This document shows positions 11,446 through 64,000 of a stretch of 64,000 nt of DNA, piece by piece. A program made the position numbers and the translations under genes. The stretch's first letter is position 1. Every line of letters begins with the position of its first letter. A model generated the notes under the pieces. That model ran no database searches. It was not told where the DNA came from and saw nothing but the letters and a program-made list of their open reading frames with translations. This stretch comes from Escherichia coli (GTDB taxonomy: Bacteria > Pseudomonadota > Gammaproteobacteria > Enterobacterales > Enterobacteriaceae). The stretch lies in assembly GCF_003018255.1 (NCBI RefSeq), contig NZ_CP027440.1. The stretch is one strand, 5' to 3'.

Positions 11446-11460
11446 TACTTTTGAGCCAAA

Positions 11461-11612
11461 ATGCCGGATGCGACGCTTGACGCGTCTTATCAGGCCTACA
11501 AGTCCGTTGAAAATGCTGGTTTTGTAGGCTGGATAAGGCGTTCACGCCGCATCCGGCAGCCGTGCCCAAATGCCTGATGCGACGCTTGACGCGTCTTATC
11601 AGGCCTACAATC
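11461..11612. repeat. REP/BIME cluster (three REP units, alternating orientation)
   Basis: gccggatgcgacgcttgacgcgtcttatcaggcctaca at 11463-11500 and near-identical copy at 11572-11610; inverted REP gtaggctggataaggcgttcacgccgcatccggcagc at 11524-11560. Confidence 0.8.
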
Positions 11613-11650
11613 CGTTGAAACTGCTGGTTTTGTGTGCCACATCCGGCATA

Positions 11651-51908: not shown

Positions 51909-51987
51909 CGAACGTAAGCCTGATGTGGCGCATTAGCATCTCATCAGGCAATCAATAATGTCAGATATGAAAAGCGGAAACATATCG

Positions 51988-53286
51988 ATGAAAGCGATCT
52001 TAATCCCATTTTTATCTCTTCTGATTCCGTTAACCCCGCAATCTGCATTCGCTCAGAGTGAGCCGGAGCTGAAGCTGGAAAGTGTGGTGATTGTCAGTCG
52101 TCATGGTGTGCGTGCACCAACCAAGGCCACGCAACTGATGCAGGATGTCACCCCAGACGCATGGCCAACCTGGCCGGTAAAACTGGGTTGGCTGACACCG
52201 CGCGGTGGTGAGCTGATCGCCTATCTCGGACATTACCAACGCCAGCGTCTGGTGGCTGACGGATTGCTGGCGAAAAAGGGCTGCCCGCAGCTTGGTCAGG
52301 TCGCGATTATTGCTGATGTCGACGAGCGTACCCGTAAAACAGGCGAAGCCTTCGCCGCCGGGCTGGCACCTGACTGTGCAATAACCGTACATACCCAGGC
52401 AGATACCTCCAGTCCCGATCCGTTATTTAATCCCCTAAAAACTGGCGTTTGCCAACTGGATAATGCGAACGTGACTGACGCGATCCTCAGCAGGGCAGGA
52501 GGGTCAATTGCTGACTTTACCGGGCATCGGCAAACGGCGTTTCGCGAACTGGAACGAGTGCTTAATTTTCCGCAATCAAACTTGTGCCTTAACCGTGAGA
52601 AACAGGACGAAAGCTGTTCATTAACGCAGGCATTACCATCGGAACTCAAGGTGAGCGCCGACAATGTCTCATTAACCGGTGCGGTAAGCCTCGCATCAAT
52701 GCTGACGGAGATATTTCTCCTGCAACAGGCACAAGGAATGCCGGAGCCGGGGTGGGGAAGGATCACTGATTCACACCAGTGGAACACCTTGCTAAGTTTG
52801 CATAACGCGCAATTTTATTTACTACAACGCACGCCAGAGGTTGCCCGCAGTCGCGCCACCCCGTTATTGGATTTGATCATGGCAGCGTTGACGCCCCATC
52901 CACCGCAAAAACAGGCGTATGGTGTGACATTACCCACTTCAGTGCTGTTTATTGCCGGACACGATACTAATCTGGCAAATCTCGGCGGCGCACTGGAGCT
53001 CAACTGGACGCTTCCAGGTCAGCCGGATAACACACCGCCAGGGGGTGAACTGGTGTTTGAACGCTGGCGTCGGCTAAGCGATAACAGCCAGTGGATTCAG
53101 GTTTCGCTGGTCTTCCAGACTTTACAGCAGATGCGTGATAAAACGCCGCTGTCATTAAATACGCCGCCCGGAGAGGTGAAACTGACCCTGGCAGGATGTG
53201 AAGAGCGAAATGCGCAGGGCATGTGTTCGTTGGCAGGTTTTACGCAAATCGTGAATGAAGCACGCATACCGGCGTGCAGTTTGTAA
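51988..53286 (+). CDS. appA: periplasmic phytase / acid phosphatase (histidine acid phosphatase family)
   Basis: ORF track 51958..53286; start at ATG 51988 giving MKAILIPFLSLLIPLTPQSAFA signal; RHGVRAP active-site motif. Confidence 0.95.
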   Translation: MKAILIPFLSLLIPLTPQSAFAQSEPELKLESVVIVSRHGVRAPTKATQLMQDVTPDAWPTWPVKLGWLTPRGGELIAYLGHYQRQRLVADGLLAKKGCPQLGQVAIIADVDERTRKTGEAFAAGLAPDCAITVHTQADTSSPDPLFNPLKTGVCQLDNANVTDAILSRAGGSIADFTGHRQTAFRELERVLNFPQSNLCLNREKQDESCSLTQALPSELKVSADNVSLTGAVSLASMLTEIFLLQQAQGMPEPGWGRITDSHQWNTLLSLHNAQFYLLQRTPEVARSRATPLLDLIMAALTPHPPQKQAYGVTLPTSVLFIAGHDTNLANLGGALELNWTLPGQPDNTPPGGELVFERWRRLSDNSQWIQVSLVFQTLQQMRDKTPLSLNTPPGEVKLTLAGCEERNAQGMCSLAGFTQIVNEARIPACSL

Positions 53287-53291
53287 TGCAT

Positions 53292-53322
53292 AAAAAAGAG
53301 CATTCAGTTATCTGAATGCTCT
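53292..53322 (+). terminator. rho-independent terminator of the app operon
   Basis: stem agagcattcag-ttat-ctgaatgctct flanked by A6. Confidence 0.7.
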
Positions 53323-53353
53323 GAGGCTGATGACAAACGAAGAACTGTCTAAT

Positions 53354-53390
53354 GCGTAGACCGGAAAAGGCGTTCACGCCCCATCCGGCC
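53354..53390. repeat. single REP element
   Basis: gcgtagaccggaaaaggcgttcacgccccatccggcc, REP-like palindrome between convergent appA and etk. Confidence 0.7.
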
Positions 53391-53405
53391 ACCTTACCTT
53401 CAGTT

Positions 53406-55586
53406 TTACTCTTTCTCGGAGTAACTATAACCGTAATAGTTATAGCCGTAACTGTAAGCGGTGCTGGCGCGTTTAATCACACCATTGAGGATTGCGCCTT
53501 TAATATTAACGCCAGCCTGTTCCAGACGCTGCATTGACAAGCTCACCTCTTTGGCGGTGTTCAAGCCAAAACGCGCAACCAGCAGGCTGGTGCCGACAGA
53601 GCGTCCCACGACCGCAGCATCGCTCACCGCCAGCATCGGCGGCGTATCGACAATCACCAGATCGTAATGGTCGTTCGCCCATTCCAGTAATTGACGCATC
53701 CGATCGCGCATCAGCAGTTCAGACGGGTTAGGTGGCACCTGACCGCGAGTAATCACATCAAAGCCTCCTTTGCTAAAATGCTGGATCACTTTGTTGAGCT
53801 CATCTTTACCTGCCAGATATTCCGACAAGCCATGTTCATTACTCACGGTAAACAGGTTATGCGAATAACCACGGCGTAAGTCGGCATCAATAAATAACAC
53901 TTTTTGATCGGACTGGGCGATCACCGCTGCCAGAGTTGAACTGACAAACGTTTTACCACTGTCTGGCGTCGCACCGGTGATCATCAGAATATTATTCTCA
54001 GTCTCCATCATAGCGAAATGCAGACTGGTTCGTAGCGCACGTACGGCCTCCACAGCAGAATCCGCCGGGTTATCCACCGCCAGGAAGGGGATATTTTTAG
54101 TACGATGGCGCTGCTGATTAGAAAATAAATTTTTCTTACGCAGACGGGTACGTTTATCCAGCCACTCGGACATTGGGATAGTGGCATAAACGCTGATGCC
54201 GTGCTCTTCCAGTTGTTCCGGGGCTTCTACACCACGACGCAACATCGCACGCGCCAGCACGGCACCCACCGAAATAAACAGGCCAAGAATAAAACCAAGC
54301 ACCACATTCAACGCTTTTTTCGGTTTCACTGGCTGCGGCTGAGTGACTGCCGGGTCGATAATCCGCACGTTACCAATCGCACTGGATTTCGAAATACTCA
54401 ACTCCTGCTGGCGGTTAAGTAATTGCAGATATACCGCACGGCCCGCTTCTACGTCACGGCTTAAACGCAATACTTCCTGTTGAGTGGAAGGCATTGCCGA
54501 TACCCGCTTATTCAGGCGTTTGCGTTCTTGCTCCAGCGTCTGGCGTTTTTCCAGTAGCGCACGATAAGTTGGGTGATCTTTCTTGTACAGCTGGGAGATC
54601 TCTGCCTCGCGGAAGGTCAGCTCATTGAGTTGATTATCAACGTTAACAATCTGCTCAAGAACGGCTTTGGCTTCCAGGTTAAGGTCAACCGAATCGCGCT
54701 GTTGGCGATAAACGTTGAGTTTTTCTTCCGCCTGGTCCAGCTCGCTGCGTACTTCAGGCAACTGGCGCTGTAAGAACTCAAGGCTTTGTGAATCCTGCGC
54801 CGCCTGGCGAGCGATATTCTGTTGCAAATAGTTGTTAGCGATGCTGTTCAGAATACGGGTAATCAACTGGGGATCATCACCGGTCATGGTAAGTTCCAGC
54901 ATCCCGCTTTCTTTACTGCGTTCGCTAACGGTAAAGGTTTCCTGCAGGGCGTTAATCGCTTCCAGTTCGGTGCGCTGGCTCAGGACAAACTGTGTTCCTG
55001 CTTTGGCCTTAATGTCCGCGATAGTCAGCGCAACGCCGTCTTTTTCCAGACGCTGGCCGACCATACCATTGACGGTGAACCCTTCACCTTCCAGCGTATA
55101 GTGGCCGTTTTCCCCAACTGTGAGTGTCAGTTGCTGATCCTGACCATTCAGTTGTGGGATGTGCATCCAGCTGATCGCCAGCTCACCTGGTTTCTCTTTG
55201 GTTAATCTCGCCCAGCCGCGACCCACAATAGGAAAATACTTCTGCTCAACCATGTCGCGCAGATTCAGTTCAGCAATGGTTTTACCGAGAATCATGCGCG
55301 ATTGCAGCAGTTGGATCTCCGGTGCTGACTCGGGCGATGAGTTAGGGATCATATCGCTCAGGCCGCTGAGAATGGCGTTGCCCTGTTTCTGCTCAACCTG
55401 GACCAGAGTATCTGCCTGATAAATTGGCGTGCTTAACAGCGAGTAAGCGACAGCGATCAGCGTGAACAACGCGGTCACGCTGACAATAAACTTACGGTGA
55501 TCCCATAACTCGCCGACCAGACGAAGCAGATCGATCTCATTTTCCTGAGTGCTGCCTGGTGGCGTATTCATATTTTTAGTTGTCAT
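53406..55586 (-). CDS. etk: BY-kinase (protein tyrosine autokinase / capsule co-polymerase) Etk
   Basis: 726 aa; Wzc-like with C-terminal Tyr-rich tail (YSYGYNYYGYSYSEKE) and Walker A (GATPDSGKT). Confidence 0.93.
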   Translation of the reverse strand: MTTKNMNTPPGSTQENEIDLLRLVGELWDHRKFIVSVTALFTLIAVAYSLLSTPIYQADTLVQVEQKQGNAILSGLSDMIPNSSPESAPEIQLLQSRMILGKTIAELNLRDMVEQKYFPIVGRGWARLTKEKPGELAISWMHIPQLNGQDQQLTLTVGENGHYTLEGEGFTVNGMVGQRLEKDGVALTIADIKAKAGTQFVLSQRTELEAINALQETFTVSERSKESGMLELTMTGDDPQLITRILNSIANNYLQQNIARQAAQDSQSLEFLQRQLPEVRSELDQAEEKLNVYRQQRDSVDLNLEAKAVLEQIVNVDNQLNELTFREAEISQLYKKDHPTYRALLEKRQTLEQERKRLNKRVSAMPSTQQEVLRLSRDVEAGRAVYLQLLNRQQELSISKSSAIGNVRIIDPAVTQPQPVKPKKALNVVLGFILGLFISVGAVLARAMLRRGVEAPEQLEEHGISVYATIPMSEWLDKRTRLRKKNLFSNQQRHRTKNIPFLAVDNPADSAVEAVRALRTSLHFAMMETENNILMITGATPDSGKTFVSSTLAAVIAQSDQKVLFIDADLRRGYSHNLFTVSNEHGLSEYLAGKDELNKVIQHFSKGGFDVITRGQVPPNPSELLMRDRMRQLLEWANDHYDLVIVDTPPMLAVSDAAVVGRSVGTSLLVARFGLNTAKEVSLSMQRLEQAGVNIKGAILNGVIKRASTAYSYGYNYYGYSYSEKE

Positions 55587-55605
55587 CGTATTTTATAAAC
55601 TCAAA

Positions 55606-56052
55606 TTACCGGCTGAGGCGCTTCGCCCATTCCTGACTGGCGCGCTCCAACATACCGTAGACATGTTCAAATGCGTCCTGACTTTTACGATAGGGATCCG
55701 GGATCTCTTTCTGTTCCAGCCATTGCCCAAACAGCATTGTCTTCCCGCGGACCTCGGGAGCGATTGCGGTAACCTGAGCAATATGTTCCGACTCCATTGC
55801 CAGAATCAGATCGTAATTTCGTGCCATCTCAGCAGTGAGCTTACGTCCGGCATGTCCTTCAAGAGATACGCCATGATTTGCGGCAACATCTGCTGCTGTC
55901 GCATCTGCAGGGTGTTTTACCAGACCATGAACACCTGCCGATTTGACTTTTACGCCTGGCAGACGTTTACGCAGCAAGCGCTCGCCAATGGGCGAACGGC
56001 AAATGTTGCCGGTACAAACCACCAGGATTGAGTTAAATTTTAGTTGGGCCAT
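55606..56052 (-). CDS. etp: low-molecular-weight phosphotyrosine protein phosphatase Etp
   Basis: ORF track 55606..56133; start giving [24 protein letters not shown] (CX5R P-loop). Confidence 0.92.
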
Positions 56053-57179
56053 GTTTGAATCCACCGTGAAGTCTCTGTCAGGTCGTGCACCCCGGAAATC
56101 GTCGGTACCAGCAGAGAAATCACACGGTTCCAACGAGCCAGCGGCGCGGTAGTGACATAAACAATGTCGTAAGGTTCAAGCTGGAATTCCGTTCCGAGTA
56201 TCATTGCCGATGCGTCCTTCGCATTCAGCTGATAAATATTGGCGATTTTGCCATTCTGCTTGTTTTGCGTTGCACGAATAACAAAAATCCCCGTCGCATC
56301 AGCGACATCCTGATTCATACCCTCAGCGTTACCCAGCGCTTCCGCCAGGGTCATACCGCTGCGGTCCATTTTCAGCGTGCTCTGTTTACCCACTTCACCC
56401 ATCACGAAGACTTTCAGATCATCGTTGCGCGGAATAAATAAAATATCGCCCGGGTGCAGCAGTTTGTTCTGGCGCAAGTCGCCACGCTGCATCAGCGCAT
56501 AGAGGTTCACTTTGGTCTTTACGCCATTCTGGGTGAGCACCACGTTGCGCCAGTCTGCATCTGCGGTCAGACCGCCCGCGGCGTTAATCGCATCCATGAT
56601 GGTCAGAGGAATATTGGTAATCGGCTGCTGACCCGATTTGCTGACTTCGCCGGTGACGTACGCTTTTTGCGAGCGGAACGCCGCGACGCTGACATCGACT
56701 TGCGGGCTTTCAATGACTGAATCCAGACGCGCTGTAATCTCGTTGCGTACCTGGGTAAGCGTTTTCCCGGCCACTTTCAGGCGACCAATATAAGGGTAGA
56801 AAATTGCACCATCAGCGTTAACCCAGTTGCCGGTATCACTGGCGCTACGGTATTGCCCTGCGGGGGTGGTTAGTTCCGGGTGATCCCAGACCGTAACCAT
56901 CAACACATCCCCAATGCCGATACGATATTCATAGTTCGCGATTTGCTGCTCCAGCTCCGGATTAGCCTGCGACATAATCGGTTTGGCGCGCAGCTGATCA
57001 ATCAATCCTGGCGTGACGGGATAGATATTGACCATTTTGTCCAGGTCATACTGATTGTCAGGTAGTTCAATGACATCCTTGTTACTGGTCGATAAATTCT
57101 GACCAGGAACAAGGGTACATGCTGTCAAAGACAGAACAGCCAATGTCAGTACCGAAAACTTAAAAATGTTCTTTTTCAT
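56040..57179 (-). CDS. gfcE: Wza-like outer-membrane polysaccharide export lipoprotein GfcE
   Basis: ORF track 56040..57200; start giving [21 protein letters not shown] lipobox. Confidence 0.92.
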
Positions 57180-57224
57180 TGGTTTATATTTATCAGTCAA
57201 TGTAATGTTATGAATTACGTCAGG

Positions 57225-59321
57225 TTATTGTCCAACCGGTACTTCTCGCTCTGCCGTCATTGGATAGAGCTGGTATTTACGTGACAGCATTTGTCCACCA
57301 TCACGCGTCAATGGTGTCCACGAAACCACCGCGCGGTTGCGGTTAGGTCCAATGGTCATCAAGTCGAACGGAATCGAGATATAAAAACCTTTACTAAAGC
57401 CGCCTTCGCCGTAGTCATCTTTTGATACGTTACTGATTGCCGCCCATACCCCTACTGCCACGCCGCTGTCAAAGCGTTTGGCGACGTCGATCGTTGCACC
57501 TTTATCTTTTGCCAGATATTGCCCAACGCTAAGTTTCATCAGTACGCCATTGAGCGTCGGCGGGTTCCAGTAAGCCGTCACGAAACCTGTTGGCGTAGAA
57601 TAATCGGTGAAGCGCATCATGTTGTCCCAGTCACGCTGCTTCACGTAGTTAACGTCCACACCCAGCGCCCAGCTGGCATCTAGCGGGCGATAAAGCAGCT
57701 CGGAACCGACACCGGCATACATCGTTTCCAGATAACCGCCATACACCTGGCCATAGAAACCGTTGCCTAAGTCGGCAAAGTAGTTCGCTTGCAAGTTGTT
57801 GAGATAAACGTCATTGCGAACGTAATCACGGATATGCGTGCGCACGCGGGGCAGGGTAGAGTCCGCGGGTAATAGCGAAGACTTAAACTTGTCGTAGTTA
57901 TTGTAAATATTGGTGAAAATACCGCCATCAAGCAGCAGGTGGTCGGTAAACCAGTAGCGGGCGCTGGACATCAGCCCCAGCTGGAACATATAGAAATCTT
58001 CCGGGCCGCCCAGCGACTGTGAAAGTGTTGGGTTGAAAGAGTAGCTAAAGCGATCTTCACGAATACGGTAGCCCCGACCAAAGGCAGAAAGATCTTCAGC
58101 TTCAACACGTTGTTGTTGCAGTGGCTCTGATTGACCAGGCGCTGTACCGGCCAGTTGTTTGCGCAGGCTGGCTACGTCGGTTTCGGTAGTCACCATCGCC
58201 ATATGCTCGCGCTTTTGCGTCACACTAATCTTCTCAACGCCTTGCGGCAGGTTATTCACCAGAATCCGGTTGGCACGATCGACCGCTTCGCGAGAGTCAC
58301 GGTATTTGTATTGCTGACCAGACATATACAGCGTCTTATCGCGTAGCTGAATTTCTGGCGCGTCAAAGCCCGCGTTATACTTCAGGGCGGTAAGTTGGTT
58401 TGCTACCGTGGTGTACTGCAATCCTTCAGATTCCGGCGCAGGTTGATATGCCGGTTTTGGCGTATCGCGCAGGGCAGGGCGCAGATCGTTGAAATTGGTC
58501 CGTAACGTGAAGCCAAACATCAACGTGTTACCGCGTTCATAACTCAGGTTGAGATCTGCCCAACTGGCAGCGCGATAAACTGCGCCGACGTTGAAATGGC
58601 TTGCCTGCGGCAATTTGCCCGCAAAATCATTCTGGTAATTGTTGCCATCGTATTCGAGTTTCAGACGCAGAGGATTCCACGGCGTTTGATACTCAATACC
58701 GCCCAAAATAGAGGCTGGACCACGAAAGATATCGCTAAAGCTGATATCTCCCGCATCGTGAGACTCTGCGCGATGGCAATATTTATCGCTTACCCGACAA
58801 AACGGGTTGGTAATATTGCCCGCATTACCGGCGTAGCCCCAGGCCATCCCGAGGGTGAAATCGAACGGGCCCGCTTGCTTGCTGGCCACCAAATATTCAC
58901 CGTCAAACAGACCCGTACCAGCAATATCACGTTTACCAAACGCCACTTGCGGTAGCCAGTAACCTTCTTCCCACAGGCGAAGTTTAAAATCGAAAGATTT
59001 GTCTTTGTATGACTGATCGCCGCTGAAATCTTCCCACTGGCTATATTTGCGTGTGCGCACATCCGTATAACGAATGGTGCCTTCCAGCCATGGGAACAGC
59101 GCCACGGAGGTGGAGTAGAAACGGTATTGATCGTTATCCCGGTAGTTTACGCTGAATTCACCTTCCGGTGCGATGCGCGCATTTGGCATCTGCAACAATC
59201 CTGTGCCGCCAAAGTCTGATTGCGACGAACCCAGCGGATCCGGATAGGTTAATACTTCAGCATGACAGGCACTGGAGACGGCAATGGCCAGGCAGCTTAA
59301 AAGATAAGAGTTCTTCTTCAT
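57225..59321 (-). CDS. gfcD: outer membrane beta-barrel protein GfcD (YmcA)
   Basis: 698 aa with signal peptide; sequence recognised. Confidence 0.9.
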
Positions 59322-60067
59322 CAGTCAGGAACACGTTGCGTTAAAACAGACACAATCTGGTCATTTAAATCAGCATATTTTTCGGGCAGTACATGCGCAG
59401 AAAAGCCTAACCAAAGCTGGCTGCCAGGCGGTGGTTCCACATGTCTTTTATTCCACAGGGCAACAGGGGCGACGACAGCCTCACCCTCAGGCGTAATCAC
59501 CATAACGTTATTCTTGTCCGCGCCTGCAAGACGGGTGTGATCTTGCAGATAATCGGTAACGCTACGGCCTGCCAGCCAGGGCAATTGCCCAGCCCCAGAA
59601 ACCGCACCTAGCAGAGTAATAGTCACCGGACGCTGTACGGTATAGAGCGTATAGTCCCCGACCAGCGGGGGATTGCTGTTCTCATCCACTCGTACAAAAT
59701 CAGGGTCCAGTTTGACCGGTAAGCGACCAGTGATATTGAGATTGAGTAACTGCTGGCGCACGGATTTAATCGTTGCCACCACATCGTCGTCAGCTTCTGC
59801 TTCCCAGGAAGCAAGCTGTGCCATGACATGTTGGTAGTCTTTAAGCGCTTTAGCTTTCGCCGCAGAGTCGGTCAGCAAGGCACCAGGCCACCAGAGGCGA
59901 TCGCGCAGTTGCGGTTGTGTCACCAACTGGACAACATTTTCCACGGGGCCAACGGAAAGTGTCTGTTGTTCGCCAGGCAGATAAATAGTCACCGTTCCTT
60001 GCGCAAAGGCATGGGGTGTCATTACGTAAAGTACGCTGGCAATGAAATACGACTGTAATTTATTCAT
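59321..60067 (-). CDS. gfcC: periplasmic protein GfcC (YmcB)
   Basis: 248 aa with signal peptide; operon position. Confidence 0.9.
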
Positions 60068-60708
60068 GGTGCGGGTTTAAGAAACGTCATTTCTACGGGA
60101 ATAACCCCTGCGCCTAACATTTGCCGACTTTGACGAACCTGGCCACTAGCCGAATCGACCCAGAATGTGTTTTGCCACTGTTTTTCTGGCAGCGTGGAAG
60201 TCACCTCTTCCTGCCAGACATTACACAGCACATCGCGACCCGCAATATTCAGCGTCTCTAATCCAGCAAAGGAAAAAGTGGAACTCAGGGTCGCAGAGCG
60301 AAAATGGTTGTCTTCACTCCAGAGAATATCGCGCGTCCAGCGGCTGCCGTCTTTTATTGCCAGCGCGTTACGCAGAGGGTCCTGCCCGGAATTTGTCACT
60401 TCCAGCAGATTATTATTAAGTTTGACGGTTTTTAAAAGACGTCCATTGTGGGTAACCAGCATGGCGTTATCCTGGGATAACCATTTGCTTTGTTCTTGTT
60501 CTATATATCCCAGTACCACAAAGATTCGTTGCCCTTCATTAAGGCGTAAATACATCGTGGAATAAGGCAACGCCTGGATCTGCTGATCCGCTACGGTGAT
60601 ATCCTGATTATCGAAAAGGCTGGCGCGAAATGTATCGACCATACTTTGCTGGCTGTGCGTACATCCCGCAAGAAATAGTGCGAAAATCGATAAAATAAGA
60701 GGGCGCAC
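60064..60708 (-). CDS. gfcB: lipoprotein GfcB (YmcC)
   Basis: 214 aa; lipobox LAGCTHS. Confidence 0.9.
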   Translation of the reverse strand: MRPLILSIFALFLAGCTHSQQSMVDTFRASLFDNQDITVADQQIQALPYSTMYLRLNEGQRIFVVLGYIEQEQSKWLSQDNAMLVTHNGRLLKTVKLNNNLLEVTNSGQDPLRNALAIKDGSRWTRDILWSEDNHFRSATLSSTFSFAGLETLNIAGRDVLCNVWQEEVTSTLPEKQWQNTFWVDSASGQVRQSRQMLGAGVIPVEMTFLKPAP

Positions 60709-60814
60709 CTTTAATCCTTGAAAGGTTAATTAAAAAAATGCAAATCTCTAAAGCCCGGTACGAATATCGCAACCGGGTATCATTTAACTTTAATTTTGAC
60801 GCGTTAAAGCAGTA

Positions 60815-61120
60815 TTAGCGCGTAGTGGACGTGGTGGTTGAGGTGTTATGAGAACCGCCATCGCCACTGTCATTTGCTGCAACTACTGCCAACGTCGCCA
60901 CACCAACAGCCGTTGCCACACCGACAACCGTCGCCGTGCCGACAGCGCCAGCAGCCACGCCACCAGTGGTAGCAGCAGTCGTGGTTGCACCTGTAGTGGT
61001 CGTTGTGGTGCCAGTAGTACCCGTCGTTGCCTCAGTCCCGTTTGCTGCTTCAGGGGCAGCAAATGCAGCTGGCGTCGTCAACATGAAGGCCATAAGGATT
61101 GCAGAAAGCTTGTGTTTCAT
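60815..61120 (-). CDS. gfcA: Thr-rich secreted protein GfcA (YmcD)
   Basis: ORF track 60815..61138; start giving MKHKLSAILMAFMLTTPAAFA; Thr/Gly/Ala/Val low-complexity body. Confidence 0.88.
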   Translation of the reverse strand: MKHKLSAILMAFMLTTPAAFAAPEAANGTEATTGTTGTTTTTTGATTTAATTGGVAAGAVGTATVVGVATAVGVATLAVVAANDSGDGGSHNTSTTTSTTR

Positions 61121-61560
61121 AACTTTTCCTTTATTCATCGCATGGACAATACGTACGCTTGAGATCAGGATTATCTACTTTGAGTATAACATCCTTGTGA
61201 AATCTCCCTTTCCTCATACCGCCAGCACTATATACTGCGGGTGGGAAAGGCGCGCAGAGGGAAATATAAGATTGTTAACTATTCCCCTCTGGAAATACGA
61301 CTTGTGAGCATAAGATAAATCTTAGCAAAATACAAATTAAAGATAAGAAAATTGTTAAGAAAGCTATTAACTATTGTTGGTAATATAGTTTCAAGTGGTA
61401 CTATAACTGGCTGTTAAGTGGCATTTATAACTATTAGGTGCAGAGATATTCGCTTAAATGGATTTGTTGCCCGGTGAAAAAGTAACTTGCGTTATAATTT
61501 ATGGTGTTGACTATTGAGCTATTCCAATAAAACCAGCCAACTTTAAACAAGCAACTCATA

Positions 61561-61773
61561 TTAAGAGAGATAAACATTTGCCGCTGTTGGTCCTCGCAGG
61601 CCATTTACGCGGCAAAATTCCACGCGTAATCCTGGTATAAGCACTTCTGCGTCGCGGGGAGTGAATGCGGAAATATGGACCTGGACTTCTTTACGACCGT
61701 CGGAGGGGATAATGAATCCTTTGCCGCTTTTGCGATCAAAGGTTTTGACAATTCCTGTCATTTTACGGGACAA
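61561..61773 (-). CDS. cspH: cold-shock-domain protein CspH
   Basis: 70 aa; [23 protein letters not shown]. Confidence 0.92.
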
Positions 61774-62058
61774 ACAAATTCCTTACTGAAAATACTGCGC
61801 TGCACTATACGGGGTTAATAAAATAAAGCCAGCGATATTTAAGACCGCCGGACGGCTAAAATAAAATTTGCTTAATCTCAATTATCATGCGTTAATAGCT
61901 GCGTCGGTTTGAAAGACAGACAGCATACAAAGTAGTTTACTAAAGCAGTTCTCATTATCAGGCATTATCCCCTTCTTTTGAGTCTCTCTCCTGAACACTA
62001 AGTAGTTTCTGTACTAAAGCCCTGTTTGCCGAAAGGCCCAAAATGAAGGAAGTAAAAT

Positions 62059-62271
62059 ATGTCTAATAAAATGACTGGTTTAGTAAAATGGTTTAACGCA
62101 GATAAAGGTTTTGGCTTTATCACTCCTGATGATGGCAGCAAAGACGTTTTCGTCCATTTCACCGCCATCCAGAGCAATGAATTCCGCACGCTGAACGAAA
62201 ATCAGAAAGTTGAATTTTCTATTGAGCAGGGGCAACGTGGTCCCGCGGCAGCGAACGTTGTTACGCTCTAA
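62059..62271 (+). CDS. cspG: cold shock protein CspG
   Basis: 70 aa; [23 protein letters not shown] (RNP1 motif). Confidence 0.95.
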
Positions 62272-62470
62272 GGTTGCCGTTATTACTCCACATCTCCATT
62301 TCCGCTGTCCATGTTGTCATGGTTCACAGTACCGCACATCGGCATTCGATGTGACGGAGCGAAATCCTTTAGGGGCAAAGTGTATTTTTTGTAAATCGAC
62401 GATGATCACCTTTGATAACGTCGCGCTGCAAATACGCACTGACCATGCGCCGCTGGATTTCACAAAATAA
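62237..62470 (+). CDS. ymcE: small Cys-rich protein YmcE; start codon uncertain (non-ATG)
   Basis: ORF track 62210..62470; contains ...[21 protein letters not shown]...; no in-frame ATG near 5' end, GTG at 62237 chosen. Confidence 0.5.
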
Positions 62471-62664
62471 TATCAGGCTCCCTCGTGGAGCCTTTTTTAT
62501 ATCTGCCTTATTTTTCTTCAACGCTGTATGTATAGTAAGCGATAACCTGTTGATTATTGAATCTTTCGGGGAGATGGCTTATAACATTTCTTACCTGACC
62601 AGGGTACCGGGAACCAACACCTTACTGGCGTGTTGCTGTCTTTCAAGACCAGAAGAGGTTAACA

Positions 62665-62838
62665 GTGAATATTGAAGAGTTAAAAAAACAAGCCGAAACG
62701 GAAATCGCTGACTTTATCGCGCAAAAAATCGCCGAGCTGAACAAGAATACAGGGAAAGAAGTCTCTGAAATTCGCTTCACCGCACGAGAAAAAATGACCG
62801 GGCTTGAAAGTTATGATGTCAAAATCAAAATAATGTGA
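62665..62838 (+). CDS. gnsA: GnsA (57 aa; GTG start; below the ORF-track cutoff)
   Basis: read from DNA: (M)NIEELKKQAETEIADFIAQKIAELNKNTGKEVSEIRFTAREKMTGLESYDVKIKIM. Confidence 0.85.
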   Translation: MNIEELKKQAETEIADFIAQKIAELNKNTGKEVSEIRFTAREKMTGLESYDVKIKIM

Positions 62839-62885
62839 TTTTGTGAACATCACCCGTGCGAGGTGATGTTCCGCTTGTTGCTAAT

Positions 62886-63959
62886 TTAGTGGCCAATCAT
62901 TGGCGCTTGTGGAATTAAGCGTCGGTACAATTCCTCCGGCACCGGGCTTTGCCATACTCCCGCATACATTGCGTAACCAATCACCGCAAACATAATCCCC
63001 AGAATCAGTAGCGTCATTAACCAGCCAGACAACGCAAAGGCTTTTTTATTTGCCGCAGGTTTTTGCAGTGAAAAGGTCAATGTTGAGGCTACCGGACATG
63101 ACTCTACGCAAGTCATACAGCCGGTACATTCCACTGTTCGTACCTGAATTAATTTATCGACCGGGATCCGTGATGGGCAATTTTTTGCGCATTTGCCACA
63201 GTCGATACAACTTTCGGCATTGCGACGAATCTTAAACGGCGATAATAGCGAAACCACGCCCATCAGCGCGCCATATGGGCAAAGATAACGACACCAGGCA
63301 TGGCGAATAAACAGGCTGGCAATCAGCAAAACGATCATGCTGATTAATGTCGCGGTCCCCATATGACGAAAGAAATTGAGCATTTTAACGTCCATCACCA
63401 CGCTGTAGGGCGACAACATAAAATAGTGAATCGCCTGAGCGGGCATCAATAACGCAATATAGAGAAAAAAACTCAACAGCAAATACTTCACGCCGCGCAG
63501 AGGAGTATCCAGCCAGCGGGGAAGGACAAATTGCCGACCAAACAGTTTGTTACCGAGATCGCCGATTAATTCAGAAAGCGTACCAACCGGGCATAACCAT
63601 GAACAAAAGGCCTTTTTTAATAATAGACTGATGACGATAAAAGCGACCAATAACAGCATCGCGGCGGCGTGGACGGACGGTAACTGGCCTGTTGCAAGGC
63701 TATATTTCAGATTCATCAGACCGGCAATCGGTAGCCAGCCTTCGATACCTCCCGGTCTGGTGACAAATGTCGTACTACCTGCCGTTTCGTAATAGCGCAC
63801 CCAATACCAGAACGTGATGGCAATATAAATATTCATTGCCAACAGTAATAATTGCGTCGCTTTACGCCAGGTCGTGGCATTGCGCCAGTCATTCCACGGT
63901 AATTTGCCGCCCGTCGTGCTTGGCCGCCGCTGCCAGCGGGTTCTTCTTTTCTCTGTCAT
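62886..63959 (-). CDS. yccM: membrane-bound 4Fe-4S ferredoxin-type protein YccM (NapH/MauN-like)
   Basis: 357 aa; polytopic with CxxCxxC clusters (CIDCGKCAKNCP, CTGCMTCVESCP). Confidence 0.9.
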   Translation of the reverse strand: MTEKRRTRWQRRPSTTGGKLPWNDWRNATTWRKATQLLLLAMNIYIAITFWYWVRYYETAGSTTFVTRPGGIEGWLPIAGLMNLKYSLATGQLPSVHAAAMLLLVAFIVISLLLKKAFCSWLCPVGTLSELIGDLGNKLFGRQFVLPRWLDTPLRGVKYLLLSFFLYIALLMPAQAIHYFMLSPYSVVMDVKMLNFFRHMGTATLISMIVLLIASLFIRHAWCRYLCPYGALMGVVSLLSPFKIRRNAESCIDCGKCAKNCPSRIPVDKLIQVRTVECTGCMTCVESCPVASTLTFSLQKPAANKKAFALSGWLMTLLILGIMFAVIGYAMYAGVWQSPVPEELYRRLIPQAPMIGH

Positions 63960-64000
63960 GATTTTGCCAGTCCGTTAAGTTGCATACCAAATGCCACTAT

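Follow-up and report, generated by a model that had tools for sequence, protein, structure and literature searches.

An intact, insertion-free gfcABCDE-etp-etk locus in the appA/cspH interval of an Escherichia coli chromosome

The window (the whole stretch of DNA that was analysed, 64,000 nucleotides, spanning ldtD to yccM) almost certainly carries, in the appA/cspH interval, the chromosomal gfcABCDE-etp-etk group 4 (O-antigen) capsule export operon of E. coli in insertion-free form. No evidence contradicting this identification was found. Profile HMM matches and annotation assign the genes to an already known system in its ordinary intact form, and the original prediction was correct in calling it described and not new. 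Read in the order gfcA-B-C-D-E-etp-etk, the seven genes lie on a single strand and are separated by short gaps or overlap, the same layout as in four annotated genomes. Genes and flanks are as follows.

51958-53286, plus strand: appA, downstream flank, convergent with etk; an open reading frame annotated as appA in collinear records
53406-55586, minus strand: etk, 726 aa
55606-56052, minus strand: etp, 148 aa
56040-57179, minus strand: gfcE, 379 aa
57225-59321, minus strand: gfcD, 698 aa
59321-60067, minus strand: gfcC, 248 aa
60064-60708, minus strand: gfcB, 214 aa, GTG start
60815-61120, minus strand: gfcA, 101 aa
61561-61773, minus strand: cspH, upstream flank on the same strand as the gfc genes (NF012008, 176 bits against a cut-off of 141)

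The coordinates give overlaps of 13 nt (etp/gfcE), 4 nt (gfcC/gfcB) and 1 nt (gfcD/gfcC), matching those named in the original prediction, and gaps of 19 nt (etk/etp), 45 nt (gfcE/gfcD) and 106 nt (gfcB/gfcA). None of the seven genes contains an internal stop or frameshift, and each protein has the length of its counterparts in K-12, EDL933, JNE23-011 and EPEC E2348/69, so that the claimed intactness of all seven genes is borne out. Identity to the proteins of EPEC O127:H6 E2348/69, the strain in which the capsule role of the operon was demonstrated, is 97.6-100%, and the proteins of K-12 and EDL933 are nearly identical as well. The gene order appA-etk...gfcA-cspH-cspG is common to the window and the four annotated genomes, and the window is collinear with JNE23-011. 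A foreign origin of the locus was considered and rejected: with about 51% its G+C content is similar to that of the flanks, leaving no compositional trace of recent acquisition.

Etk is an inner-membrane BY-type tyrosine autokinase (NCBIfam equivalog NF007350, 1589.9 bits against a cut-off of 1248) with the Pfam domains Wzz, WZC_N, GNVR and P-loop. K545, the Walker A lysine, is retained together with Y574 and a cluster of Tyr residues at the C-terminus, and the kinase domain is that of the solved Etk structure PDB 3CIO except for G605S, a position at which Wzc has E. Etp is a low-molecular-weight phosphotyrosine phosphatase (NF008486, 331 bits against a cut-off of 247; Pfam LMWPc) with its CX5R(S/T) motif, CTGNICRS, at residue 13 and with D119 and Y121 present. 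GfcE is a Wza-like outer-membrane polysaccharide export lipoprotein (NF011658, 703 bits; Pfam Poly_export, SLBB and Wza_C) with the lipobox LTAC at residue 18. Both Etp and GfcE are 100% identical to the proteins of EPEC, K-12 and EDL933.

Full-length Pfam matches well over the cut-offs were obtained for GfcB, GfcC and GfcD. GfcD is a YjbH-family outer-membrane beta-barrel protein (YjbH, 894 bits) and 99.3% identical to the EPEC protein. The periplasmic GfcC, matched by Caps_syn_GfcC_N and Caps_syn_GfcC_C, is 97.6% identical to that of EPEC and identical to that of JNE23-011. GfcB is a YjbF-family lipoprotein (YjbF, 233 bits) with the lipobox LAGC at residue 13 and 99.5% identity to EPEC. GfcA, a small protein with 28% Thr and an N-terminal signal peptide, matched no Pfam or NCBIfam model; it is identical to WP_001299283.1 of EDL933 and JNE23-011, named 'threonine-rich inner membrane protein GfcA' in RefSeq. 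Its ATG is preceded 8 nt upstream by AAGGA.

The region between gfcA and cspH had been predicted as about 440 bp of continuous sequence with no insertion element, and this was confirmed by alignment to EPEC, EDL933 and JNE23-011 and by the empty K-12 IS1 site. Two features are of importance here.

61121-61560, minus strand: gfcA-cspH spacer, 440 bp, continuous, AT-rich (36.5% G+C)
61145-61153, no strand assigned: 9-bp IS1 target GACAATACG, in a single copy in the window and duplicated around IS1 in K-12 (from BLAST breakpoints and junctions)

The spacer aligns end to end, with single-base gaps only, to EDL933, EPEC and JNE23-011, and likewise to K-12 when the IS1 element and one of the two target copies are taken out. 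In K-12 AG100, 768 extra bases annotated as 'IS1-like element IS1D' lie between two copies of GACAATACG, and the MG1655 record breaks at the same base. The element sits 25 nt upstream of the gfcA ATG with its transposase gene directed away from gfcA. A location of IS1 in the promoter of the K-12 operon is also given in PMC2516531. The original prediction is correct in that K-12 carries IS1 here, the 768-bp element and its 9-bp duplication lying between the promoter region and gfcA. That the element silences the operon is too strong, since etk was argued to be still expressed in K-12 under some conditions despite IS1 (PMC2516531) and since a 'native etp promoter' close to etp has been used (PMC3366997).

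Among the complete E. coli genomes carrying this stretch, 3179 of 3615 (88%) are uninterrupted at the IS1 site. In the interrupted genomes that were sampled, mostly laboratory K-12 derivatives, the breakpoint is that of K-12. The insertion-free locus is the ancestral state in E. coli and, with such a majority, marks nothing special about this strain; once more, it is K-12 that stands out here as atypical. The gfc locus is missing altogether from about one third of the complete E. coli genomes, in which appA and cspH meet at a clean junction, so it was fair to call the locus the most accessory-like part of the window.

Such losses raise the question of a hidden inactivating lesion, a missense or promoter point mutation in a locus heading to loss as has happened repeatedly elsewhere. 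Other lineages often show decay: in strain 116333 an IS1A-associated deletion has removed gfcA and its promoter and gfcD is frameshifted, and etk of S. flexneri has a 14-bp deletion (PMC4368438). The window itself exhibits four lineage-specific substitutions, Etk P196A and G605S, GfcD F206L and GfcB T188S. All four recur in dozens of E. coli assemblies, though, and the exact Etk and GfcD proteins are present on 68 and 67 E. coli contigs, respectively, so that they represent lineage polymorphism and not sequencing errors. As G605S further affects a residue that differs between Etk and Wzc, and as catalytic and lipidation motifs are intact in genes free of stops and frameshifts, we find a hidden lesion barely credible.

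For the intact operon, a mechanism can be proposed by analogy to work on EPEC O127:H6, EHEC and S. sonnei. Wzx/Wzy enzymes encoded elsewhere would make the polymer of O-antigen repeat units; the rfb/O-antigen region needed as this polymer source lies outside the window. The operon products would export the polymer and assemble it at the cell surface into a layer of high molecular weight, known as the group 4 or 'O-antigen' capsule. GfcE would serve as the Wza-like outer-membrane channel and Etk as the Wzc-like inner-membrane co-polymerase and tyrosine autokinase, which Etp would dephosphorylate so that the phosphorylation state cycles. The lipoprotein GfcB, the periplasmic GfcC and the beta-barrel GfcD are expected to form an outer-membrane complex, and GfcA would be a small Thr-rich envelope protein. 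Transcription probably begins in the AT-rich spacer upstream of gfcA, from which IS1 would separate the genes in K-12.

Several of these steps have counterparts in the literature. The EPEC capsule requires all seven genes, which are carried on one mRNA; a complex of GfcBCD is also reported (PMC8592465). In S. sonnei, deletion of the operon led to loss of the capsule, which was restored by the operon with its own promoter (PMC4368438). In EPEC, EHEC, S. sonnei and O78 ExPEC the capsule affects resistance to serum, complement and defensins and masks surface structures (PMC4368438, PMC3853201, PMC10932389). For the strain investigated here, transcription of the operon and formation of a capsule would follow the same scheme. 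The import beyond annotation is small: the locus equips the strain genetically for an O-antigen (group 4) capsule, and the window makes no open question testable.

It is quite possible that the locus is intact yet effectively cryptic, with a gfcA promoter of low activity or tightly repressed as in EHEC and no capsule under ordinary conditions. The composition of the spacer is consistent with such repression, AT-rich DNA being typically bound by H-NS. EHEC O157:H7 EDL933 has the same intact, IS-free locus collinear with the window, and in EHEC the gfcA mRNA is about 30-fold lower than in EPEC and no capsule is formed in N-minimal medium (PMC3853201). Judged by this analogy, an intact and IS-free locus is insufficient for a capsule, since the same arrangement in EHEC comes with low gfcA mRNA and none. 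An EHEC O26:H11 strain was likewise found to be non-capsulated (PMC10932389), the gfc locus of that strain not being examined there.

The sequence next to gfcA points in the other direction. The 293 bp that adjoin gfcA on its upstream side are of the EPEC-type haplotype in the window, with 3 differences from high-expressing EPEC against 9 from EDL933, a contrast that is only suggestive. Positions 61173 and 61223-61224 group the window with EPEC, and K-12 with EDL933; on the gfc strand, 61173 lies in GATAAT in the former pair and in GACAAT in the latter. Whether a strain is encapsulated might be set by natural point variants in the promoter region next to gfcA rather than by IS1, an idea which we regard as very unlikely to hold. 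If the bases at 61173 and 61223-61224 did explain the difference in gfcA mRNA between EPEC and EHEC, the commensal-type chromosome studied here would be a constitutive producer of group 4 capsule.

The genes could also matter mainly beyond the capsule, for example through Etk-dependent tyrosine phosphorylation of Ugd, which is tied to polymyxin resistance (PMC2516531), with possible internal promoters acting independently of the gfcA promoter. The argued expression of etk in K-12 (PMC2516531) would fit, as would the use of a 'native etp promoter' inside the 80 bp upstream of etp to express Etp (PMC3366997). This reading, however, leaves the conserved, intact gfcABCD genes with their translationally coupled overlaps unexplained, and it is at odds with the need for all seven genes in the EPEC capsule (PMC4368438, PMC8592465). 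We therefore consider it unlikely and retain the capsule export operon as the preferred reading. A role in Ugd phosphorylation and polymyxin resistance and a role in capsule formation are not mutually exclusive.

Alignment of 61121..61560 with K-12, EPEC and EHEC, as proposed originally, settled the absence of IS1. The promoter could be bounded without being pinpointed; we infer its position to be within about 61154-61413. The outer limit comes from the S. sonnei complementing fragment (PMC4368438), the upstream end of which maps to 61392-61413. For the primer at its far end, downstream of etk, the window offers no site even when 2 mismatches are allowed, so only the upstream end could be mapped. 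A sigma-70 promoter scan of the spacer on the gfc strand found none. The best weight-matrix candidate was TTGTAT-17-TATGCT with the -10 element at 61312-61307 (score 7.7), followed by an extended -10 TGTTATACT with the -10 element at 61188-61183 (score 4.5). Shuffled sequences gave a mean best score of 8.6, and 140 of 200 shuffles reached or exceeded the best candidate; no sigma-70 promoter is therefore asserted.

On the minus strand, GGCGGTAT at 61219-61226 agrees with the RfaH ops core in 7 of 8 positions and was considered as an ops/JUMPStart-like element. It was rejected for lack of conservation, the site being AGCGGTAT in K-12, AGTGGTAT in EDL933 and GGAGGTAT in EPEC. RNA folding z-scores of -0.08 (cspH 3' region), -0.19 (gfcA 5' leader) and -0.81 (gfcA-gfcB spacer) were indistinguishable from shuffled sequence. 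Rfam gave no match within the gfc locus or the gfcA-cspH spacer, and otherwise just the cspA-type thermoregulator at cspG and an STnc220 match below threshold.

Among known systems, the gfc locus of EPEC O127:H6 E2348/69 (ymcDCBA-yccZ-etp-etk) shares with the window the same seven genes, order, lengths, overlaps and appA/cspH flanks, and neither carries IS1. Apart from Etp and GfcE the proteins are 97.6-99.5% identical, differing in a few amino-acid substitutions, and expression and a capsule are predictions for the strain analysed here. Of the 20 differences between the two spacers over 440 bp, 17 fall into the 147 bp adjoining cspH. In K-12 (MG1655, AG100) all seven open reading frames are intact as well and appA-gfcA matches the window at 98.1% DNA identity, the difference being IS1 with its duplication in place of an empty site.

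In the group 1 capsule and colanic acid systems, Wza, Wzb and Wzc are paralogues of GfcE, Etp and Etk and appear as the second-best NCBIfam matches; Etk matches the PDB Wzc structures with E=1e-104. In contrast to those systems, the best HMM matches here are the Etk- and Etp-specific equivalogs and not Wzc and Wzb. The Pfam families of GfcB and GfcD take their names from YjbF and YjbH of the yjbEFGH exopolysaccharide operon, which is described as homologous to gfcABCD (PMC8592465). Only the gfc locus has the two modules fused into seven genes between appA and cspH.

The window is ordinary Escherichia coli core chromosome that extends from ldtD to yccM. Between appA (end at 53286) and cspH (61561-61773) it carries the seven open reading frames of the group 4 capsule export locus:

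53406-55586, minus strand, etk, open reading frame
55606-56052, minus strand, etp, open reading frame
56040-57179, minus strand, gfcE, open reading frame
57225-59321, minus strand, gfcD, open reading frame
59321-60067, minus strand, gfcC, open reading frame
60064-60708, minus strand, gfcB, open reading frame with GTG start
60815-61120, minus strand, gfcA, open reading frame

None of the seven frames contains an internal stop, and all proteins have the length of their counterparts in K-12 AG100, O157:H7 EDL933, JNE23-011 and EPEC O127:H6 E2348/69, so that the genes are intact as originally predicted. The predicted overlaps of etp/gfcE (13 nt), gfcB/gfcC (4 nt) and gfcC/gfcD (1 nt) are reproduced by the coordinates; the other junctions are gaps of 19 nt (etk/etp), 45 nt (gfcE/gfcD) and 106 nt (gfcB/gfcA). 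Within the latter, a hairpin (CCCGGU...ACCGGG) is located at 60754-60777 on the minus strand, followed by a U-run about 20 nt beyond it, and might reduce read-through towards gfcB-etk. The gfcA-gfcB spacer as a whole folds no better than shuffled sequence (z = -0.81).

Etk and Etp match their own NCBIfam equivalogs with 1589.9 bits (cut-off 1248) and 331 bits (cut-off 247), followed by the models for Wzc and Wzb, respectively, and GfcE matches a polysaccharide export model. Pfam domains are Wzz/WZC_N/GNVR and P-loop in Etk, LMWPc in Etp, Poly_export/SLBB/Wza_C in GfcE, YjbH in GfcD, two GfcC domains in GfcC and YjbF in GfcB. GfcA gave no match to any Pfam or NCBIfam model; it is identical in sequence to the RefSeq threonine-rich inner membrane protein GfcA of EDL933 and JNE23-011, with 28% threonine and a signal-like N-terminus. 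Expected motifs were found in Etk (K545, Y574, C-terminal tyrosine cluster) and Etp (CTGNICRS, D119, Y121), as were lipoboxes in GfcE and GfcB. In comparison to the solved structure 3CIO, the Etk kinase domain exhibits one difference, G605S, at a position that is not conserved, since Wzc carries glutamate there. Identity to EPEC E2348/69, where the role of the operon was established, amounts to 100% for Etp and GfcE, 99.5% for GfcB, 99.3% for Etk and GfcD, 98% for GfcA and 97.6% for GfcC. Etk and GfcD are found with exactly these sequences on 68 and 67 E. coli contigs, respectively, and the lineage-specific substitutions are thus real polymorphisms rather than sequencing errors.

The gfcA-cspH spacer (61121-61560, 440 bp, 36.5% G+C) aligns continuously with EDL933, EPEC and JNE23-011, in accordance with the predicted lack of an insertion element. 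Against K-12 the BLAST alignment is broken: window 52000-61153 ends at one K-12 point and window 61145-64000 restarts 768 bp later, with the 9 bp GACAATACG (61145-61153) on both sides of the break. This 768-bp insert is annotated as an IS1D-family element with its transposase gene directed away from gfcA, and the break falls at the same base in an MG1655 record. The predicted IS1 of K-12 is thereby established. Its insertion point precedes the gfcA ATG by 25 nt, just ahead of the AAGGA ribosome-binding sequence, and it therefore cuts the K-12 genes off from everything further upstream. To call the K-12 operon silenced, as was originally done, is an oversimplification, since etk appears to be expressed there under some conditions (PMC2516531). 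Experiments have made use of a promoter close to etp (PMC3366997).

The IS1 site was probed with 201 bp centred on it, a length short enough to keep the two parts of an IS1-split match separate; 3615 of the 5426 complete E. coli genomes gave a match, and the site is uninterrupted in 3179 of these (88%). Among the matches listed, six of eight interrupted genomes share the K-12 breakpoint and are, by name, mostly laboratory derivatives. In the species the uninterrupted site prevails and is not unusual; the window shows this state of an already known system. The full locus is present at a coverage of at least 80% in 3695 of the 5426 genomes. About one third lack the whole gfc-etk locus together with the spacer (window 53278-61559), appA abutting cspH directly; homology to the window ends at about 53277 and restarts at about 61560. 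In this form (comparison locus L004, 3990-4011) appA ends in altered codons and runs 13 bp into cspH. Both breakpoints fall almost exactly on the limits of the stretch originally described (53406-61560). Strain 116333 (L005) represents an independent decay route: IS1A replaces window 60835-61318, comprising gfcA and the proximal half of the spacer, and the same genome has gfcD annotated with a frameshift. In S. flexneri 2a, a 14-bp deletion in etk was reported (PMC4368438). Loss of the whole locus in about one third of the genomes and these other routes characterize it as a frequently lost, semi-accessory module, of which K-12 carries one of several decayed versions and the window the common intact form.

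In EPEC O127 a single mRNA carries all seven genes, and the capsule requires every one of them; Wza, Wzb and Wzc are paralogues of GfcE, Etp and Etk, respectively, an outer-membrane complex is built from GfcB, GfcC and GfcD, and GfcA is a Thr-rich protein of the envelope (PMC8592465). As capsule polymer the strain uses its own O-antigen, the product of a Wzy-dependent pathway encoded elsewhere (PMC4368438; PMC10932389). By analogy, the capsule-export model established in these relatives would apply to the window strain. The family assignments and the match to the EPEC operon agree with the original view of a described system, not a new one. Overall, the original observation is confirmed and its interpretation supported. 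The strain may retain a functional locus, within limits set by the EHEC example and by O-antigen genes located outside the window: EDL933 shares the intact arrangement without IS1, but in EHEC gfcA mRNA is about 30-fold below EPEC and no capsule is formed in N-minimal medium (PMC3853201). An EHEC O26:H11 strain is likewise non-capsulated (PMC10932389).

In S. sonnei, capsule was regained with a fragment reported to carry the operon "with its own promoter" (PMC4368438), and the upstream primer of this fragment matches window 61392-61413 with 0 mismatches. Combined with the position of IS1 in K-12, this match would place the promoter at about 61154-61413. Alignment of the spacer with K-12, EPEC and EHEC, as originally proposed, verified the absence of IS1 and contributed to bounding the promoter rather than locating it. 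Neither a tool scan nor a weight-matrix scan returned a sigma-70 site scoring above shuffled sequence, and the spacer contains no Rfam family and no RNA structure distinguishable from shuffled sequence.

The 293 bp adjoining gfcA (61121-61413) show 0-9 differences among five strains, the window differing from K-12, EDL933 or EPEC at only 3-9 positions (1-3%; three from EPEC, nine from EDL933). In the 147 bp on the cspH side (61414-61560) 15-19 differences (10-13%) to the same three strains occur, and JNE23-011 is identical to the window. On the minus strand, T at 61173 is common to the window and EPEC and produces GATAAT (GACAAT in K-12 and EDL933); the two also agree in TG at 61224-61223 (AA in K-12 and EDL933). 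These states parallel the reported high (EPEC) and low (EHEC) gfcA mRNA, in two strains only and with an unmapped promoter. It is unlikely that the EPEC-like proximal haplotype is decisive for expression.

The first 50 kb of the window are collinear with JNE23-011, among complete genomes the closest, at 99.2% identity, and the last 12 kb align at 99.5% without gaps. In the latter the similarity is mosaic, with 58 of 60 mismatches within 52116-60146 followed by about 3.3 kb (60147-63464) with none, a pattern that suggests a recombination boundary inside the gfc locus. The cspA thermoregulator family (Rfam, 155 bits) covers the cspG leader and start at 61903-62325 (plus strand), as expected for cspG; further downstream, near ymcE/gnsA, 62428-62508 (plus strand) resembles STnc220 only weakly (34 bits, against a gathering score of 60). 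Cross-matches in the BLAST against JNE23-011 also revealed a 70-71 bp repeat present twice between pepN and ssuB (11455-11525 and 11564-11633). The two copies are about 94% alike and are probably REP/BIME-type intergenic repeats.
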